Positions 1-6,005 of a DNA stretch of 6,005 nucleotides are shown here, piece by piece; the first letter of the stretch is position 1, and the number at the start of each line of letters is the position of its first letter. A model generated the notes under the pieces. The model saw only the letters and a program-made list of their open reading frames with translations. It did not search any database and was not told the DNA's origin. The translations under genes and the position numbers were made by a program. The stretch is from a virus (taxonomy: Duplodnaviria > Heunggongvirae > Uroviricota > Caudoviricetes), in the IMG/VR virus record IMGVR_UViG_3300029722_000070, positions 1-6,005 of that record. One strand, 5' to 3'.

Positions 1-213
1 CATTTGCGCTGTCACTTTCGGTACCGGTGACACCGGTTCACTTTCACCAGCCTGAATCAGCCACCACATCGAACCCTTGTTATCCGCTTCACCGCGGCGC
101 TTCAGTTTCCACAGTTCGTTGACCGCATCTTCACGGCTGATTCCAAGGCGGGCCGCCACTACCTGTGAAGAGGCTCTTTTCAGTGCTTTCAGTGCGTCAA
201 ATACGGTTTCCAT
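1..213 (-). CDS. Small hypothetical protein, possibly a winged-helix DNA-binding protein at the Ren position downstream of P; the 3' end runs off the left edge of the window
   Basis: ATG at 213-211 (complement) with GGAGGA 7 nt upstream (complement of 221-226). Reading frame is open to position 1. Translation begins METVFDALKALKRASSQVVAARLGISREDAVNELWKLKRRGEADNKGSMWWLIQ. It sits where ren lies in lambda, directly after the P-like gene. Not in the ORF track because no stop falls inside the window. Confidence 0.5.
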   Translation of the reverse strand, partial: METVFDALKALKRASSQVVAARLGISREDAVNELWKLKRRGEADNKGSMWWLIQAGESEPVSPVPKVTAQM

Positions 214-246
214 TAAAATTTCCTCCGACAAAATCGTTTCTCAGAT

Positions 247-909
247 TCAAATAAAACCAGCTGCCTTCCGGCGTTCGTATTCCTGTTTCAGCCGTTCAAT
301 TGGCGTTGGCCCTTGCGGGTGTTTCGCCCCTTCCAGTTGTCGTCGCACTGGCGGAACACTCATCCCGTTACCAACATGCTTTGCCCATTTCGTCAGTTGC
401 CGTTCCGCAAGTCGTTTTAACTCACCCTGCGTCATCTGGCGCTCAATCCCTCTGGTACGCATTTCGAGGCAGATGTGGTACAGCACAGGCTGTGGCCACG
501 GGTATTTATCACTCCCGTCGTATCGCCAGGATTCATTGCGCCAGCGCCGGTACTCTTCCATCACTGCATCCACCGTAAGACCAAATGGATTTGCCCCACT
601 CTCCGAAATCAGTGCAACAAACTCAGCCAGGTCCGGGGGCCACGTTTCACCCGCCCGGCAGCGGTCCATGCACTGACGGCAGACCAGCCGGATTTGCTGT
701 TCAGTCATCGTGCCAATCTGGGCAATCCATAGCTTCGAAGGTGCGGCCCCGTTCTTCTGTGTCCAGCGGTTCGAATACACCTCCCCCATAAGCTCCCACA
801 GCTTCCAGGCCGTTTCCGTTGCTGATAAATCCGTTGTCACGTTCCCACTGTTCGCGTGCTGCCCGGATTTCCTGAACTGCCCGTGATGCCGTGCCACCTG
901 ATGCTGCAT
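247..909 (-). CDS. Replication protein P-like (DnaB helicase loader, lambda P family)
   Basis: 220-aa ORF with AGGGGG Shine-Dalgarno about 7 nt upstream of the ATG at 909. From recalled sequence, the C-terminal half (YPWPQPVLYHICLEMRTRGIERQMTQGELKRLAERQLTKWAKHV) aligns with lambda P (YPWKSNAHYWLVTNLYQNMRANALTDAELRRKAADELVHMTARIN), and the central IGTMTEQQIRLVCRQ segment aligns with lambda P GITTMEQVNAGMRVAR. Position after an O-like gene fits. Confidence 0.78.
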   Translation of the reverse strand: MQHQVARHHGQFRKSGQHANSGNVTTDLSATETAWKLWELMGEVYSNRWTQKNGAAPSKLWIAQIGTMTEQQIRLVCRQCMDRCRAGETWPPDLAEFVALISESGANPFGLTVDAVMEEYRRWRNESWRYDGSDKYPWPQPVLYHICLEMRTRGIERQMTQGELKRLAERQLTKWAKHVGNGMSVPPVRRQLEGAKHPQGPTPIERLKQEYERRKAAGFI

Positions 910-1429
910 GGCTTACCCCCTTGCTGACTGGTTTTACCTGTGCCCTGACGTGCTGCACGTGGCGGGCAAATTTCTGCTCCCACTGAACCTGCGTGAAAAC
1001 CTTCCCCTCCGCCATCCAGTAATCCCGGAATGCGGCAAGCTCTGCAGGTGTAAATTCCGGCTCAGGCAGAGCCATACCCCACACTGCTGCCCGTTGTCGA
1101 AAATCCGACGACGGCTGCCAGACAGTAGTCATCAAAAATTTCCCGATCGGTTCGCTCAGGCCGTCCAGGTATTCAGGTTCGGCTGTCTGCAACGGCGCAC
1201 CATGCGACTCACCGGTTGGAGCACTCTCGCGCATGCGCGTGTTATGTGTGGGGTTTAATTCTGTATCTGTATCTTTATCTGTCGTGACTTGTCGTGACTT
1301 GTCGTGACAGATGCGTGACACGTCGTGACTCATCGTGACAATCAGCATCATATTTCCGCAGCTTTTCGCGCTCCCGCTGCGCTCTCTTGCGCTCTGCCGG
1401 GGATTTTGCCGTTTGCGAAACGTTACCAT
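701..1429 (-). CDS. O-like replication initiator, C-terminal portion; in a different frame from the N-terminal ORF, so probably a frameshifted gene or pseudogene
   Basis: 242-aa ORF. The first 60 or so residues are low-complexity and read through the repeat array, but from about residue 80 the sequence looks protein-like (FLMTTVWQPSSDFRQRAAVWGMALPEPEFTPAELAAFRDYWMAEGKVFTQVQWEQKFARHV). No convincing ribosome-binding site of its own. It overlaps ORF 1275-1754 by 155 nt and overlaps the P start by 209 nt in another frame. Confidence 0.4.
   Translation of the reverse strand: MVTFRKRQNPRQSARERSGSAKSCGNMMLIVTMSHDVSRICHDKSRQVTTDKDTDTELNPTHNTRMRESAPTGESHGAPLQTAEPEYLDGLSEPIGKFLMTTVWQPSSDFRQRAAVWGMALPEPEFTPAELAAFRDYWMAEGKVFTQVQWEQKFARHVQHVRAQVKPVSKGVSHAASGGTASRAVQEIRAAREQWERDNGFISNGNGLEAVGAYGGGVFEPLDTEERGRTFEAMDCPDWHDD
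1260..1283. repeat. Four tandem hexamers (TCTGTA TCTGTA TCTTTA TCTGTC), AT-rich, abutting repeat array A
   Basis: Read directly from the sequence at 1260-1283, preceded by TTTAATT. An AT-rich tract next to iterons is the usual layout for a DNA unwinding element. Confidence 0.5.
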
Positions 1430-1748
1430 TGTCCTCTTTCAGCACCTGACGTTTTTCCCATCCGGAAATAAGGTCACCATCCAGAACCCGCCCCTGCATT
1501 GCATGCAAAATTGAATCAATTACGTCTTCCGTCACATCAAGCGCACTTGCTAAATCTTCCGTCGTGACATCAATGTGACCACGTAGTGACACGCCGTGAC
1601 ATGTCGTGACATTTCGTGACGCACTCACCAGAAGGTGGATATACACCGCCATCACTGTTGCGATTGGCTGTCCTGAGACCCTGGCAATGGTTCGCCATTT
1701 GGGATCATTTGGCATGTCATGCCACAATCTGAGCCAGGCATTAGCCAT
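1275..1748 (-). CDS. O-like replication initiator, N-terminal (putative origin-binding) portion
   Basis: ORF track gives 1275-1754 from a GTG; the in-frame ATG at 1748-1746 has a GAGGTG Shine-Dalgarno just upstream and is preferred. It lies between the CII-position gene and the P-like gene, as O does in lambda. Both repeat arrays fall inside it. It ends at a stop inside repeat array A. Confidence 0.6.
   Translation of the reverse strand: MANAWLRLWHDMPNDPKWRTIARVSGQPIATVMAVYIHLLVSASRNVTTCHGVSLRGHIDVTTEDLASALDVTEDVIDSILHAMQGRVLDGDLISGWEKRQVLKEDNGNVSQTAKSPAERKRAQREREKLRKYDADCHDESRRVTHLSRQVTTSHDR
1284..1339. repeat. Iteron-like array A: six GTGAC cores (consensus TCGTGAC) phased at 10-11 bp
   Basis: GTGAC begins at 1284, 1294, 1304, 1315, 1325 and 1335 (spacings 10, 10, 11, 10, 10). 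The first three units are exact copies of GTCGTGACTT. Helical-turn phasing inside an initiator gene suggests initiator binding sites (ori). Confidence 0.7.
1564..1620. repeat. Iteron-like array B: six GTGAC cores phased at 10-11 bp
   Basis: GTGAC begins at 1564, 1575, 1586, 1596, 1606 and 1616 (spacings 11, 11, 10, 10, 10). Same core and phasing as array A, about 280 bp away, within the N-terminal coding part of the O-like gene. Confidence 0.7.
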
Positions 1749-1816
1749 ACTCACCTCATCTGATACCGAACTTTACCCTCGAACATCCGGAAGAAATCCG
1801 GCATGAATATTGTTGG

Positions 1817-2242
1817 TCAATGCACGACAACAGCATTACCAGGCTGACCACCACTGTTAGTCAGGGTGCCCCAGGCGATCGCCGCTGCGACAAAATCATC
1901 CACATCTTTCACCAGCCGATCCCTCCGTTCGACGATCTCACGGTAATATTCAGAGCTGTGACTGCGCATACGGGCCACCAGCAGAGGCGGCATTGCCTTT
2001 TCGATCGCCGGTAACAGAGCCTGAATTTTTTCAACAGCATCAGGGGTGTCTTTATCCAGCCAACGGAAAATTTTCTGGGTATTACGAGCCAGGGCTTCCG
2101 GATGGCTGTCGTCGTACAGTTCCGGGAACGTCATTCCCAGCTCGAAATACGCTTTGGTAATTTTCGCAGCCGGTACTTTTTCGCCGTCCGGATGCGCCCA
2201 GACATTCATCGCCATGCGGATATGTTCATGTTTGATTTTCAT
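1817..2242 (-). CDS. YdaT-like protein at the CII position
   Basis: 141-aa ORF whose ATG (2242-2240) overlaps the stop of the upstream cro-like gene (2239-2241) by 3 nt, which suggests translational coupling. It occupies the slot between cro and the replication genes. The MKIKHEHI N-terminus and length match my recollection of the YdaT family; this is from memory, not a search. Confidence 0.65.
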   Translation of the reverse strand: MKIKHEHIRMAMNVWAHPDGEKVPAAKITKAYFELGMTFPELYDDSHPEALARNTQKIFRWLDKDTPDAVEKIQALLPAIEKAMPPLLVARMRSHSSEYYREIVERRDRLVKDVDDFVAAAIAWGTLTNSGGQPGNAVVVH

Positions 2243-2454
2243 GAATCATTCTTTCCTTCGTTCGAGGTGCTATCCTGCTTCTTGTAAAGTTCTGGGTTGT
2301 ATTTCAATTCACCGTTAGTAATTTCATCCAGTTCCATTGCGCGAAGTTTGGGAATAACTGCTTTCCACCGCACAACAGCCACATGTGAAATTCCAAGAGC
2401 CTCAGCTACTAGTCGCTTTTTTTTGAAATAGCGCAGAACATCATCTTTGAACAT
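2239..2454 (-). CDS. cro: Cro-like HTH regulator (P22 Cro / YdaS family)
   Basis: 71-aa ORF with AGGAGAG Shine-Dalgarno 5-6 nt upstream of the ATG at 2454. The sequence MFKDDVLRYFKKKRLVAEALGISHVAVVRWKAVIPKLRAMELDEITNGELKYNPELY aligns along its length with P22 Cro as I recall it (MYKKDVIDHFGTQRAVAKALGISDAAVSQWKEVIPEKDAYRLEIVTAGALKYQ). It is divergent from the repressor gene. Confidence 0.85.
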   Translation of the reverse strand: MFKDDVLRYFKKKRLVAEALGISHVAVVRWKAVIPKLRAMELDEITNGELKYNPELYKKQDSTSNEGKNDS

Positions 2455-2483
2455 AAAACTCTCCTGTTATTTCGAGCAGAAGG

Positions 2484-2497
2484 GTAACAATAGTTAC
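2484..2497. promoter_or_regulatory. Candidate operator O1 (GTAAC-AATA-GTTAC)
   Basis: 14-bp site with perfect 5-bp inverted-repeat arms, read directly from the sequence. Confidence 0.55.
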
Positions 2498-2531
2498 ATA
2501 ACAATGTCAACCATAGCAACATCACTTGGTA

Positions 2532-2545
2532 GTAACATTGGTTAC
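2532..2545. promoter_or_regulatory. Candidate operator O2 (GTAAC-ATTG-GTTAC), abutting the repressor start codon
   Basis: Same arms and spacer length as O1, centred 48 bp from it, ending one base before the ATG at 2546. Confidence 0.55.
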
Positions 2546-3220
2546 ATGAAAAACACTATCAGCGAACGTATTCGGAATCGTCGAAAAGACGTTGGATTAA
2601 CCCAACAGCAGGTTGCGAAAGCAATCGGCATATCTCGTGTATCCGTAACAAAATGGGAAAATGGCTCTTCAAAACCTGACGGTGAGAATTTGTATCTACT
2701 GTCAAAATTGCTTTCCAAATCTCCTGAATGGATTCTTTATGGAAAGGACTGTCACGATAAAACCGATGATCTGCGTCTGAATCAGTACCCTTACATTAGT
2801 GACAACATCGCCCGGTTGCCCGTTTTAACGTGGGAACAGGCTGGTTATTGGGATATGAGTTGTCCAGTAACCAAGATTCCTGGTATTAAGAACTGGGTTG
2901 ATGTCATGACAAAAACCGCTGAAAACTCTTTTTTATTGCATGTTGAGGGAGATGCGATGACAAACTCTAACGGCCTCCCAACCATCCCCGACGGATCTAC
3001 CGTGCTGATTACACCATGCTCAAGTAACATTAGAGAACTGGTGGGAAAAATAATCTTAATCCAATTGGAAGGAACGCCAAACGTAACACTAAAAAAAGTT
3101 GCGATTGACGGACCAAACATCTATTTGTTGTCACTGAATCCGCTTTACAAACCCATCGAACTGAATGGTGGTTACACCATTAAAGGTAAAGTTTCACAAA
3201 TACATCAATACTTAGACTGA
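2546..3220 (+). CDS. cI: CI/C2-type immunity repressor (N-terminal HTH, C-terminal LexA-like S24 domain) with Ala at the nucleophile position
   Basis: ORF track gives 2447-3220. I chose the ATG at 2546 because MKNTISERIRNRRKDVGLTQQQVAKAIGISRVSVTKWENGSSKPDGENLYLLSKLLSKSPEWILYGKD aligns from residue 1 with the P22 C2 N-terminus as recalled (MNTQLMGERIRARRKKLKIRQAALGKMVGVSNVAISQWERSETEPNGENLLALSKALQCSPDYLLKGD), and because it leaves both operators intergenic. The C-terminal domain aligns with lambda CI and P22 C2: SFLLHVEGDAMT against SFWLDVQGDSMT, and VTLKKVA against ATFKKLV. No obvious Shine-Dalgarno, which fits a leaderless transcript as for lambda cI. Confidence 0.9.
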   Translation: MKNTISERIRNRRKDVGLTQQQVAKAIGISRVSVTKWENGSSKPDGENLYLLSKLLSKSPEWILYGKDCHDKTDDLRLNQYPYISDNIARLPVLTWEQAGYWDMSCPVTKIPGIKNWVDVMTKTAENSFLLHVEGDAMTNSNGLPTIPDGSTVLITPCSSNIRELVGKIILIQLEGTPNVTLKKVAIDGPNIYLLSLNPLYKPIELNGGYTIKGKVSQIHQYLD

Positions 3221-3225
3221 GTCAG

Positions 3226-3251
3226 AACCCGCATTCATTGCGGGTTTTTTA
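3226..3251 (+). terminator. Rho-independent terminator downstream of the repressor gene
   Basis: Stem AACCCGCA (3226-3233) and TGCGGGTT (3239-3246) with loop TTCAT, followed by TTTT (3247-3250). Begins 6 nt after the repressor stop codon. Confidence 0.75.
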
Positions 3252-3294
3252 TGCCCTCAAATGTACCTTTTGTAACATTGCATTGACTCGAAAG

Positions 3295-3308
3295 GTAACT
3301 CTTGTTAC
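3295..3308. promoter_or_regulatory. Candidate operator O3 (GTAAC-TCTT-GTTAC), OL-like, with a possible rightward early promoter
   Basis: Third copy of the GTAAC-N4-GTTAC palindrome, flanked as GGTAAC...GTTACC. A GTAAC half-site lies at 3272-3276 and a TTGACT hexamer at 3284-3289. It sits after the repressor terminator and upstream of the rightward small gene at 3490, the position OL/PL occupies relative to cI in lambda. Confidence 0.5.
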
Positions 3309-3489
3309 CCTAACAACATACCAACCCACCCCGCCCCACAGAACGCCGGGCAATACTGCGAGTTACCAGGCAGTGGTCAGGGGTTAAGTAGCCAGCCCGA
3401 GGCGTAAGAACATGACGGCAGGGTTCAACTTTAACTATGCAGCAGGTTTTTGTTCCGCTCCCCCGGCGTTAAGGGGAAATGAGGTCAGC

Positions 3490-3642
3490 ATGGATACTAT
3501 CGAGCTTGGCAACAGCGAATCTCTGGTATGCGGCGTGTTTCCCAACCAGGACGGCACGTTTACCGCGATGACGTATACCAGAAGCAAAACGTTTAAAACG
3601 GAAGCTGGCGCGCGTCGCTGGTTAGCAAGAAACTCTGACTGA
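3490..3642 (+). CDS. Small hypothetical protein, YdaF-like (DUF1391-type prophage protein)
   Basis: GAGG at 3481-3484, 5 nt before the ATG at 3490. 50-aa product MDTIELGNSESLVCGVFPNQDGTFTAMTYTRSKTFKTEAGARRWLARNSD. The ORF track starts the same frame at 3412 (76 aa); I prefer the shorter form for its ribosome-binding site and its resemblance to the roughly 50-aa Rac YdaF as I recall it. First gene right of the OL-like operator. Confidence 0.6.
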   Translation: MDTIELGNSESLVCGVFPNQDGTFTAMTYTRSKTFKTEAGARRWLARNSD

Positions 3643-3740
3643 TGAAGGTTAGTAATTAAAGAGTTCTCCACAGGCGAAGTGGAATACGTTCGCCGGACAC
3701 GGGTAAGCATTCGGCATGCTCTTTAACAATCTGGGTATTC

Positions 3741-4187
3741 CTAACCACAAAGGAATCGCATCAATTTGGATTTTGCAGACAGTTTCTCTTGTTGTTCTAC
3801 GGAGATTCCTATTTTGATCTGGGTTTTTAAGATTGCGATATCTTTAAGCGACGACCAAATATTATCATCTGTTTTTTCCAGGAGCTTTAACTGCATTTTC
3901 AATTCCGAATCGGAATATTTTTCTGCATCATCATAAAGCTGCAGATATTCTGCGGATTTTCTCATTGCGTTACCTGACTTTTGTCCGAATCCGTAAATCG
4001 TTTGAACGGTTGCTATCACAACAATGAGAACTCCAGAAACTTCAGGAATAAATCCACCAATGACAGATGAACCGAGGATAATACTCACCACTGAGAAAAG
4101 TTTATCGAGACGACCAGTCGCTACAGAGAATAGTTGTTCAAGAAAATAACCATATAAAACCCTGTCAAGAATATCATCCCGGTCCAT
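3741..4187 (-). CDS. Small membrane protein with two predicted transmembrane helices; candidate superinfection-exclusion protein (SieB-like)
   Basis: 148-aa ORF with AGGTGA 7 nt upstream of the ATG at 4187. Two adjacent hydrophobic segments (LFSVVSIILGSSVIGGFI and VSGVLIVVIATVQTIYGF) followed by a charged, helix-prone C-terminus. It is oriented against its neighbours, as sieB is in the Rac prophage. No competing ORF on the other strand. Confidence 0.6.
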   Translation of the reverse strand: MDRDDILDRVLYGYFLEQLFSVATGRLDKLFSVVSIILGSSVIGGFIPEVSGVLIVVIATVQTIYGFGQKSGNAMRKSAEYLQLYDDAEKYSDSELKMQLKLLEKTDDNIWSSLKDIAILKTQIKIGISVEQQEKLSAKSKLMRFLCG

Positions 4188-4246
4188 ATATCATCACCTG
4201 CTTGTTTGATTGTTGCTGTTCCCCCTCTCCTCTGAAGGAGCTGGAG

Positions 4247-4435
4247 ATGGTTTTGGTCGAATGTTTTTCTCAGGTATATGTTTCCTGGTATTCGGAATGT
4301 CCGCCCTGTCCGCAGGCTTACCAGTACCTGAACAATTCTTTTGAACCACCATATAAAACACCTTCCTGTTGTTGGGGATATCCAGATTATACAGATTTCC
4401 TGTTATTGGGGAATGACGGAAACCACCTCGCCTGA
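4247..4435 (+). CDS. Candidate small cysteine- and aromatic-rich protein (62 aa); uncertain
   Basis: GAAGGAG Shine-Dalgarno (4234-4240) 6 nt before the ATG at 4247. Product MVLVECFSQVYVSWYSECPPCPQAYQYLNNSFEPPYKTPSCCWGYPDYTDFLLLGNDGNHLA has 6 Cys in 62 residues. The ORF track lists the same frame from 4202. No homolog recognised and codon usage looks atypical, so it may be spurious. Confidence 0.2.
   Translation: MVLVECFSQVYVSWYSECPPCPQAYQYLNNSFEPPYKTPSCCWGYPDYTDFLLLGNDGNHLA
4363..4412. repeat. Pair of 16-bp direct repeats TTCCTGTTRTTGGGGA
   Basis: Copies at 4363-4378 (TTCCTGTTGTTGGGGA) and 4397-4412 (TTCCTGTTATTGGGGA), one mismatch, start-to-start spacing 34 bp. They fall in different frames of the 4247 ORF, so this is a DNA-level repeat rather than a peptide repeat. 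Confidence 0.5.
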
Positions 4436-4665
4436 CGTGGTTAAAAGCAGGCACACAACACGAAAGCGCACGGCGAGATTCCTTTGCATATAAGGCTTGT
4501 CGTTAAATTTCTTCGACCGTGCACTTCCGGTTGTGGCAGTCCGCGAAATGGCGCGGCGGTAAGTATGGCTGGGGCTTCCTCCATTGCTCCAGAAAATGCA
4601 CCGGGTCGTCAGGTTGACCATACGCTTAAGTGACAGCCCCGCCACAATACCCATGCGTAGTCTTT

Positions 4666-4709
4666 GGTGGCATCAGTTCTACTCCGTGACTGCTCTGCCA
4701 CCCTTTTTA
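4666..4709 (+). terminator. Candidate intrinsic terminator or RNA 3' hairpin
   Basis: GGTGGCA (4666-4672) pairs with TGCCACC (4696-4702), with an inner CAGT/ACTG pairing, followed by CTTTTT (4703-4708). The loop is long (23 nt), so the call is weak. Confidence 0.3.
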
Positions 4710-4814
4710 AAGTGAATTTTGTGATGCGGTGAATGCGGCTATGCGCACGCGGAACAGTTAAAACCGTAAAGTGGTCTTTTACGGGGCGTAACGGGCATCC
4801 TTCTGTATTCCGGC

Positions 4815-4854
4815 GTTAATTGTTAACTGGTTAACGTCACCTGGAGGCACCAGG
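4815..4854. promoter_or_regulatory. Cluster of GTTAA(C) motifs plus a short hairpin upstream of the 4891 gene; candidate regulatory site
   Basis: GTTAATTGTTAACTGGTTAAC at 4815-4835, with inverted arms TTAAC (4823-4827) and GTTAA (4830-4834). Hairpin CCTGG-AGGCA-CCAGG at 4840-4854. Lies 35-75 bp upstream of the ATG at 4891. Confidence 0.3.
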
Positions 4855-4890
4855 CACTGCATCACAAAATTCATTGTTGAGGACGCGATA

Positions 4891-5079
4891 ATGGAAACGT
4901 TATTACCAAACGTTAATACGTCTGAAGGTTGTTTTGATATTGGAGTTCTGCTCAGTAACCGGGAGTTTACTGAAGATGCCATTAAGATGAGAAAATATGA
5001 ACCTTATCTTCTCAATGATAATTCCATACTTTCCAGAATTGCCCTTCTTGAACTTGGTATTATCGGAGAACAGCAGTGA
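4891..5079 (+). CDS. Small hypothetical protein (62 aa), early-operon gene
   Basis: GAGG at 4879-4882, 8 nt before the ATG. Product METLLPNVNTSEGCFDIGVLLSNREFTEDAIKMRKYEPYLLNDNSILSRIALLELGIIGEQQ. No homolog recognised. Confidence 0.5.
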   Translation: METLLPNVNTSEGCFDIGVLLSNREFTEDAIKMRKYEPYLLNDNSILSRIALLELGIIGEQQ

Positions 5080-5096
5080 CTTCAGCATTTGCACTG

Positions 5097-5240
5097 ATGA
5101 TGACCGTTTTTCTTATAACGGGCGAGCCACAGACTGTGATTACCGGAATTTTTGCCAGTAAAGAATCCCGCCTCCAGGCAAGAGACAAGCAAAAAATTTC
5201 TGGTGAATGCCTCCCGTTAAAAAAGTATCGCTGTACCTGA
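5097..5240 (+). CDS. Candidate small protein (47 aa from the ATG at 5097, or 54 aa from the GTG at 5076), possibly Kil-like
   Basis: The GTG at 5076-5078 overlaps the TGA stop of the preceding gene (5077-5079, GTGA overlap), suggesting translational coupling. Product MMTVFLITGEPQTVITGIFASKESRLQARDKQKISGECLPLKKYRCT has a hydrophobic N-terminus and a basic C-terminus. Absent from the ORF track, presumably for length. The Kil comparison rests only on size and position. Confidence 0.3.
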   Translation: MMTVFLITGEPQTVITGIFASKESRLQARDKQKISGECLPLKKYRCT

Positions 5241-5357
5241 ATAACGAAACACCGGCTGGATAACCCGCCAGCCATATTAACACCATACCAACGGATTAAA
5301 AATGCCAGCAATGGCAGGGATTCGTTCACCCTGAAATCTGTCATGAGGTTAAAACAA

Positions 5358-6005
5358 ATGAGTAAAGTCTTTATTTGCGCCGCTATTCCTGACGAACTGG
5401 CAACAAGGGAAGAAGGCGCTGTGGCTGTAGCCACAGCCATTGAAGCTGGCGACGAACGCCGTGCTCGAGCAAAATTTCACTGGCAGTTCCTGGAACATTA
5501 TCCGGCTGCTCAGGACTGCGCTTATAAATTTATTGTCTGCGAGGATAAACCTGGCATACCCCGCCCTGCCCTCGATTCATGGGATGCTGAATATATGCAG
5601 GAAAACCGCTGGGATGAGGAGTCTGCTTCTTTTGTCCCGGTTGAGACTGAATCCGATCCGATGAACGTCACTTTTGACAAGCTGGCCCCTGAAGTACAGA
5701 ACGCTGTCATGGTTAAGTTCGACACATGTGAAAACATCACCGTTGATATGGTTATTAGCGCACAGGAATTGTTGCAGGAAGACATGGCAACATTCGACGG
5801 ACATATCGTTGAAGCGTTGATGAAAATGCCAGAAGTTAACGCCATGTATCCGGAGCTTAAGTTGCACGCCATTGGGTGGGTTAAGCATAAATGTATTCCT
5901 GGTGCTAAATGGCCCGAAATTCAGGCAGAGATGCGCATCTGGAAAAAACGTCGCGAAGGTGAACGCAAGGAAACCGGAAAATACACGTCTGTTGTTGATC
6001 TCGCC
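5358..6005 (+). CDS. Hypothetical acidic protein, 5' partial view (at least 216 aa, continues past the window)
   Basis: GAGG at 5345-5348, 9 nt before the ATG at 5358. Frame is open through 6005. Product begins MSKVFICAAIPDELATREEGAVAVATAIEAGDERRARAKFHWQFLEHYPAAQDCAYKFIVCEDKPGIPRPALDSWDAEYMQENRWDEE. Not in the ORF track because it has no in-window stop. The listed ORFs 5440-5664, 5522-5872 and 5577-5888 overlap it in other frames and look spurious. Confidence 0.7.
   Translation, partial: MSKVFICAAIPDELATREEGAVAVATAIEAGDERRARAKFHWQFLEHYPAAQDCAYKFIVCEDKPGIPRPALDSWDAEYMQENRWDEESASFVPVETESDPMNVTFDKLAPEVQNAVMVKFDTCENITVDMVISAQELLQEDMATFDGHIVEALMKMPEVNAMYPELKLHAIGWVKHKCIPGAKWPEIQAEMRIWKKRREGERKETGKYTSVVDLA

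Follow-up and report, generated by a model that had tools for sequence, protein, structure and literature searches.

Dead S24 repressors are classical as laboratory mutants, and repressors without an S24 domain that depend on antirepressors or never respond at all (Gifsy, 186 and PaaR2) are also known. In LexA, replacement of the nucleophile itself (S119A) gives a protein that is non-cleavable yet still binds activated RecA (RecA*) (PMC3159453). Among lambdoid phages, induction is blocked by Ind- mutations that affect serine-protease residues of lambda CI, and a single change of the catalytic lysine in the 933W cI gene (K178N) makes the prophage uninducible by mitomycin C (PMC3610611). In this work, we analyzed a stretch of 6,005 nucleotides (positions 1 to 6,005 of the virus record IMGVR_UViG_3300029722_000070; hereafter, the window) that represents the immunity region of a lambdoid Escherichia coli prophage. 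Its CI-type repressor gene, located at positions 2546 to 3220 of the plus strand, has an Ala codon at the position of the Ser nucleophile. By analogy with the mutants described above, it most probably encodes a natural, still-functional ind- repressor, which would make the prophage blind to the SOS response.

The engineered LexA S119A, lambda cI ind-/S149A-type and 933W cI ind1 (K178N) proteins and the repressor described here have in common the S24 fold, the layout of the Ser-Lys dyad and Ala-Gly site, and the disabling of one dyad residue, for which the expected outcome is stable repression unrelieved by DNA damage (PMC3159453; PMC3610611). Unlike the laboratory mutants, the present repressor is a natural allele that remains under purifying selection, is fixed in the major lineage of its group and occurs in about 13% of complete E. 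coli genomes. With lambda CI and P22 C2 (36% identity to the latter over 212 amino acids), it shares the HTH_3 plus S24 architecture, a divergent cro gene, palindromic operators at OR and OL and a leaderless-looking start right after an operator. It differs from both in lacking the nucleophilic Ser, in its 14-bp GTAAC-N4-GTTAC operators and in having YdaS and YdaT partners instead of Cro and CII. PaaR2, from the cryptic prophage CP-933P/Sp12 of E. coli O157:H7, is likewise a CI-like repressor encoded in the ydaS (cro-like)/ydaT (CII-like) region of a Rac-like prophage. PaaR2 has no peptidase motif and was reported to be unresponsive to mitomycin C (PMC8630535), whereas in the repressor of the window the S24 fold is complete, both the Lys and the cleavage site are still there, and the Ser alone has been lost.

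The Gifsy-1/2/3, Fels-1, 186 Tum and P22 Ant systems resemble the predicted situation in that the repressor is insensitive to RecA* and any induction proceeds via another protein; they differ in that, in our case, annotation and a consensus scan revealed no linked antirepressor or LexA box. The Gifsy and 186 repressors are not known to have an S24 domain. Loss of the nucleophile recurs in the wider S24 family, since 18 of 106 full-length HTH-S24 proteins, each representing a 50%-identity cluster, have no Ser at this position (6 Ala, 6 Thr and 6 other residues). Most of these 18 appear to have lost the Ala-Gly site too, whereas the clade studied here keeps all but the Ser and has Ser-bearing sisters at 94% identity. 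In the literature, we found nothing specific on a described natural Ser-to-Ala prophage repressor, and no description that combines an otherwise intact natural Ser-to-Ala allele, dominance in a widespread E. coli immunity group, Ser sisters one nucleotide away and purifying selection.

Catalytic residues and fold of the repressor

The repressor is encoded within an in-frame open reading frame (ORF) that spans positions 2447 to 3220. Its start is probably the ATG at 2546, and the annotated RefSeq start (ATG 2504) 14 codons too early, because a conserved operator at 2532 to 2545, inside the extension, abuts ATG 2546 and the homologues begin with MK(T/N) at this point. From this start, the coding sequence (CDS) comprises 224 codons plus the stop. 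It harbors a DNA-binding helix-turn-helix (HTH) domain of the HTH_3 family at residues 9 to 63 (positions 2570 to 2734; Pfam PF01381, E = 3.5e-17) and an S24-fold C-terminal domain, with its nucleophile replaced, at residues 92 to 216 (positions 2819 to 3193; Peptidase_S24, PF00717, E = 9.7e-17, 115 of 116 profile positions).

Direct in-frame reading of the codon at 2954 to 2956 gave GCG, corresponding to Ala137 (residue 151 when numbered from ATG 2504, the start given by the Prokaryotic Genome Annotation Pipeline, PGAP), in a GDAM motif that replaces GDSM. A first-pass annotation, made from the letters of the window, had assigned this Ala to the nucleophile column of the LexA/CI family and had stated that the partner lysine is kept; both assignments agree with the two alignments made here. 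In a phmmer comparison against PDB, the segment veGDAMt aligned with veGNSMt of the lambda repressor, and tlKKv aligned with tfKKl. In a MAFFT alignment, Ala137 fell in the column of LexA S119, UmuD S60, CI S149 and the Ser of the P22 C2 GDSM motif, and Lys183 (AAA, 3092 to 3094, in TLKKV), at the general-base position of the Ser-Lys dyad, fell in the column of LexA K156, UmuD K97 and CI K192. The canonical cleavage site, Ala99-Gly100 (GCT GGT, 2840 to 2845, in EQAGYW), is also kept and aligned with CI A111-G112 and LexA A84-G85, with Gly100 sharing its column with LexA G85, UmuD G25 and CI G112. For this alignment, P22 C2 was translated from AY121863, and the E. coli LexA, UmuD and lambda CI sequences were entered by hand and taken as valid because the recovered residue numbers equal the published catalytic residues.

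The AlphaFold model of the protein (predicted local distance difference test score of 82.7) was compared with known structures using Foldseek. Its C-terminal domain matched lambda CI 1f39, with a template modeling (TM) score of 0.80 and a root mean square deviation of 1.7 A, and 1kca, with a TM score of 0.83, and the model also matched the CI-RecA complex 8gmu and LexA C-terminal domains. The N-terminal domain matched that of P22 c2 with TM scores of 0.94 to 0.97. Relative to the closest Ser allele, the S24 domain differs solely at K110E, A137S and G208V, and no compensating Ser, Thr or Cys was found near Ala137. As seen, the S24 fold, the Lys general base and the Ala-Gly scissile bond of an S24 autoprotease are all present, and the Ser nucleophile of the G-x-S-M motif is absent. 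Judged by its nucleophile position, the repressor is an S24-fold homologue outside the active S24 peptidases, and it has every feature of a CI-type immunity repressor that can be read from sequence.

Frequency and evolution of the Ser and Ala alleles

Of 5426 complete E. coli genomes, 702 have the repressor CDS and 682 have an exact 41-mer centered on the GCG codon; the same 41-mer with TCG was found in none of them. Since so many complete genomes contain the exact GCG 41-mer, Ala137 is not a sequencing accident. Among the best 80 IMG/VR matches to the repressor, taken at an identity of at least 98%, all 80 have GCG and all 80 have an intact ORF, and GCG was likewise found in every one of 84 near-identical sequences, which represent 20 DNA alleles. 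Carriers include O25b:H4-ST131, O111 serotypes, enterotoxigenic E. coli, ML35 and E. albertii. The window itself is 99.9% identical to the prophage inserted at ompW in strain SCU-104. While the cassette formed by the repressor and cro genes is near-invariant, its surroundings are mosaic, with 8 replication-region types and 17 downstream types among about 70 loci. The cassette occurs in ompW prophages (SCU-104 and ST131) and in a potC prophage (ML35), and the integrases, Q genes and head genes of these prophages differ.

The closest different allele, which is present in eight complete E. coli genomes (O55:H7 CB9615 and seven others), is 95.4% identical at the nucleotide level and 94% identical at the amino acid level, and it has TCG, coding for Ser, at this codon. 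This TCG is the codon that, as the first-pass annotation had pointed out, a single G-to-T change would yield. More divergent alleles alternate between both residues: TCA (Ser) occurs in those at 87% identity (from O178:H19 and Logan contigs), GCG (Ala) in one at 88% identity, GCA (Ala) in a Salmonella lineage at 68% identity with an internal divergence above 10%, and TCG (Ser) in an Enterobacter lineage at 66% identity. Among the more distant homologues examined, all have Ser except for one degenerate homologue from Arsenophonus nasoniae. The earlier suggestion to check whether Ala is fixed in a clade has a divided answer: three clusters defined at 90% identity are fixed for Ala (9/9, 15/15 and 15/15), and two others are fixed for Ser (15/15 and 5/5).

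A neighbor-joining tree of these sequences requires at least three Ser/Ala state changes, suggesting that the site has switched more than once during evolution. We also considered three independent Ser-to-Ala gains and dropped this version, as a short gene-conversion tract or a reversion in O55:H7 is equally parsimonious; for this reason, only the minimum number of state changes is claimed. The window and the other E. coli Ala lineage (L010) share only four informative sites that go against the tree, which is otherwise backed by 28 and 33 informative sites. Two of these four, in codons 132 and 137, are 15 nucleotides apart and form a CAT...GCG pair that both lineages have in common.

The Ala99-Gly100 site is kept in every clade member examined bar one Salmonella variant. 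This variant, from serovar Sarajane and belonging to an Ala cluster (P0225), has the A99V substitution, resulting in Val-Gly, and is the sole case of further erosion of the cleavage apparatus that we observed. Beyond the clade, the Arsenophonus nasoniae homologue (P0016, 46% identical) has both the G-D/E-S-M motif and the Ala-Gly site degenerate (VPDDKTDN and HDMKKW, respectively), and its HTH and the remaining fold still align; this protein represents an older, more complete loss of protease function.

Both domains of the repressor are under strong purifying selection. In the S24 domain, pairwise ratios of nonsynonymous to synonymous substitution rates (dN/dS) range from 0.05 to 0.07, the Ala-versus-Ala pair included. 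Moreover, within the Ala population (84 sequences), the polymorphic sites of this domain comprise 13 to 14 synonymous versus 3 nonsynonymous sites. The S24 domain has thus stayed under purifying selection after the loss of the Ser.

Predicted consequences for induction and rival explanations

The repressor belongs to a switch of the cro/YdaT-CII type in a lambdoid (Rac/Qin-like) E. coli prophage, with the HTH domain predicted to bind 14-bp GTAAC-N4-GTTAC operators at OR and OL and the S24-fold domain presumably retained for dimerization and cooperative binding. The Ser would have been replaced by Ala through one T-to-G change in codon 137. By analogy with LexA S119A and the engineered lambdoid ind- repressors, the Ala137 protein should fold and repress, would probably bind RecA* and should be unable to cut its own Ala99-Gly100 bond, and the prophage would not be directly induced by the SOS response. 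As the Ser and Ala lineages have conserved operators in common, the Ala repressor would also block homoimmune Ser-type phages in a trans-dominant manner. We infer the loss of cleavage, the SOS-blindness and the trans-dominance from homology and published mutants, and the first-pass prediction of a non-cleavable repressor that is not directly SOS-inducible is, on the same grounds and given the identity of the column, a sound one.

Several observations weigh against this interpretation. Conservation of Lys183 and the Ala-Gly site is still perfect, for which a protein that is never cleaved would have no need, although recency of the Ser loss or structural constraint may account for it. The spread of the cassette over different backbones and at least two attachment sites suggests that the prophages with this cassette have continued to move or recombine, which sits uneasily with strict non-inducibility. 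In addition, the genome counts are inflated by clonal sampling, e.g., of ST131, and the conclusions on cleavage and induction of the Ala137 protein are drawn by analogy. Finally, among 50,697 records of isolated phages, no repressor more than 43% identical was found. We had considered this absence as evidence of non-inducibility and then downgraded it to weak evidence; it says little because the Ser lineages of the group are absent from isolated phages as well. A protein search of genome contigs gave only two irrelevant HTH matches, in metagenome-assembled genomes of Firmicutes.

The mobility of the cassette bears directly on another explanation, in which the repressor is non-cleavable and the prophage is still inducible through an antirepressor or a small inactivating protein, whose gene would lie in this or in a co-resident prophage and be controlled by LexA or otherwise. 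Such an arrangement would resemble the Gifsy, 186 Tum, P22 Ant or transcription factor-small protein modules, and we regard it as unlikely. That antirepressors control non-cleavable repressors, also in trans from one prophage to another, is reportedly established, and the occurrence of the Ala cassette in many backbones and attachment sites fits phages that are still inducible. However, our search, which consisted of annotation and a LexA consensus pattern, found no antirepressor, Rha, Bro or KilA gene annotated in the complete SCU-104 prophage (54 kb) or in the ST131 and ML35 early regions. The CTGT-N8-ACAG scan of the whole prophage gave 1 hit per 33- to 41-kb locus, versus 0.4 to 0.6 expected, with two hits in total, one within a lysis gene and the other after an autotransporter gene; these LexA-box hits are at chance level, and neither has a downstream ORF. 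Control by an antirepressor, the alternative that the first-pass annotation had left next to uninducibility, thus gained no support in these regions. Given the mosaic spread of the cassette, an antirepressor that acts in trans or escaped annotation is still considered, at a rather low probability.

The conserved cleavage site could also mean that the Ala repressor acts as a substrate only, being cut in trans by a Ser-bearing S24 partner, either a homoimmune Ser-type repressor in mixed oligomers or another resident CI/LexA-like protein, in which case induction would depend on a second element. Intermolecular cleavage by LexA and CI fragments and within UmuD dimers is documented, Ala99-Gly100 with its flanks (LPVLTWEQAG.W) and Lys183 are invariant in the Ala lineages (A99V of Sarajane excepted), and the operators are common to the Ser lineages, making mixed occupancy plausible. 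On the other hand, LexA and CI are cleaved in trans only inefficiently in vitro, two copies of the repressor gene were found in only 2 of about 700 genomes, and a recent loss of the Ser or a structural role of the strand would account equally well for the conserved site; altogether, we consider trans cleavage very improbable. Extremely improbable, in our view, is neutral decay, in which the Ala would mark a repressor gene on its way to becoming a pseudogene in a dying prophage. Frameshifts in the initiator and portal genes and truncated tail-fiber genes in the copy that is 99.9% like the window, together with an insertion sequence (IS) element in the lysis region of the ST131 copy, would fit a dying prophage. 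Nevertheless, the repressor ORF is intact in every copy examined, only one residue of the catalytic apparatus has changed, by the most conservative of the inactivating substitutions, and the same change is fixed in the 68%-identical Salmonella lineage with its internal divergence above 10%. The strong purifying selection on both domains, which persists in the S24 domain within the Ala population, and the lack of a compensating nucleophile further argue against simple decay.

With SOS-blindness of the Ala repressor as the favored interpretation, a further-reaching and more tentative proposal, which we hold as possible and somewhat doubtful, is that the Ser/Ala alternation is a recurrent selected toggle between SOS-inducible and SOS-blind states. 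The SOS-blind cassette (cI-Ala, cro and the operators) would spread among lambdoid prophages by recombination and be favored at the level of the host, grounding its own phage as well as homoimmune Ser-type phages. Such a toggle, if true, would explain the presence of the Ala allele in about 97% of the complete E. coli genomes with this immunity group.

If the loss of cleavage holds, about one in eight sequenced E. coli has a lambdoid prophage with a master switch that is blind to DNA damage, in a set of carriers that includes ST131, O111 enterohemorrhagic strains and E. albertii. This would bear on predicting the prophage response to SOS-inducing antibiotics, such as quinolones or mitomycin, and on the mobilization of prophage cargo, here an autotransporter of the SPATE type, DicB and DicF. 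It would also represent a natural, population-scale "grounding" of prophages by a single conservative substitution that does not impair the function of the repressor. With its 94%-identical Ser counterpart in O55:H7, the Ala allele forms a ready natural allelic pair.

Operators, gene order and state of the prophage copy

A palindrome scan identified two operator-like sites in the cI-cro intergenic region, 48 bp apart: GTAACAATAGTTAC at 2484 to 2497 (-62 from ATG 2546) and GTAACATTGGTTAC at 2532 to 2545 (-14, abutting ATG 2546). A third site, GTAACTCTTGTTAC, lies at 3295 to 3308, downstream of the repressor gene and past a terminator-like hairpin, where OL/PL is expected. Three perfect 14-bp GTAAC-N4-GTTAC palindromes were thus observed versus 0.10 expected, and none of 200 shuffles reached three. 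Both intergenic palindromes occupy these offsets (-62 and -14) also in the relatives found in E. coli, Salmonella and Enterobacter, even where the protein identity is as low as 66%. In all relatives compared, the palindrome at -62 is identical; the one at -14 is kept by most clade members examined, with a one-base variant in two. The O55:H7 locus has such a variant, and the Salmonella locus has only a divergent version. Because these palindromes recur at the same offsets, the whole clade is probably one immunity group. The Cro/C1-type HTH, the divergent cro gene and the palindromic operators that recur to either side of the repressor gene are those of a lambdoid CI-type repressor, and this architecture, together with the purifying selection, suggests that the protein would repress the lytic promoters and confer superinfection immunity.

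The terminator-like hairpin with its U run, directly after the repressor stop (3223 to 3252, plus strand), has a predicted folding energy of -16.7 kcal/mol (z of -4.4). None of 200 shuffles was equally stable, and the consensus scan did not list this hairpin. A sigma-70 consensus scan of positions 2380 to 3460 found no promoter. By eye, a perfect TTGACA was seen on the minus strand (window 2500 to 2512; reverse complement tgtcaa), midway between the two OR palindromes; it is kept in other E. coli and Salmonella loci of the clade, and no good -10 hexamer was found at 16 to 18 nucleotides from it.

On the minus strand, the window contains a lambda-P-like gene, a replication initiator gene that a frameshift has split in two, a gene of the YdaT/CII-like type and cro, which is P22-Cro-like. 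On the plus strand, the repressor gene is followed by ydfA (DUF1391), the DicF RNA and dicB, and, beyond the window, by an exonuclease gene, xis and int. This is the lambdoid gene order, with P, an O-like gene, ydaT and a divergent cro, and with the repressor gene flanked by the replication genes and by the early genes of the PL side. The divergent cro gene (2239 to 2454, minus strand) encodes a P22_Cro/YdaS-like protein of 71 amino acids (Pfam PF14549, E = 2.9e-16) and travels with the repressor, its median identity being 100% across 80 loci. The adjoining gene (1817 to 2242, minus strand) matches Pfam YdaT_toxin and phrog_163, "CII-like transcriptional activator" (E = 5e-47), and YdaT has been argued to be the CII analogue (PMC8630535).

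The replication initiator (O-like, with a DnaT domain; 701 to 1754, minus strand) consists of two overlapping ORFs, 1275 to 1754 and 701 to 1429, which correspond, within the same PHROG families, to the N-terminal and the C-terminal part, respectively; the gene is annotated by PGAP as frameshifted in SCU-104. A comparison with O178:H19 indicated that the N-terminal part, to the right of about position 1278, differs in origin from the rest. In the 54-kb SCU-104 copy, both this initiator and the portal are frameshifted and the tail-fiber genes are fragmentary, and the window itself has the split initiator. Because of the frameshifted initiator and portal genes, the copy in the window would produce no phage, even if derepressed or induced. 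The present role of its repressor would then lie in the silencing of early genes (dicB, the exonuclease gene and others) and in immunity.

As in the Qin prophage, dicB (about 4891 to 5079) has upstream of it the DicF antisense small RNA, at 4652 to 4703 of the plus strand (Rfam RF00039; 58.9 bits, with the gathering score at 48). Between ydfA and DicF, an ORF of 148 amino acids with a hydrophobic central segment (3741 to 4187, minus strand) matches phrog_6315, a family of unknown function, and gave no match in Pfam or PADLOC. It was found in only 1 of 77 loci that have the repressor and looks like a moron, possibly encoding a membrane protein, at the position of lambda rex. In the lysis region of the ST131 ompW prophage with the same Ala repressor (L098, 3627 to 4796), a frameshifted ISEc52 transposase gene adjoins the lysozyme gene. 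At the right end of the SCU-104 prophage, by attR (L015, 20200 to 26218), we observed genes for an S6-family autotransporter peptidase of 1341 amino acids, of the serine protease autotransporters of Enterobacteriaceae (SPATE) type, and for an adhesin with a YadA C-terminal domain.

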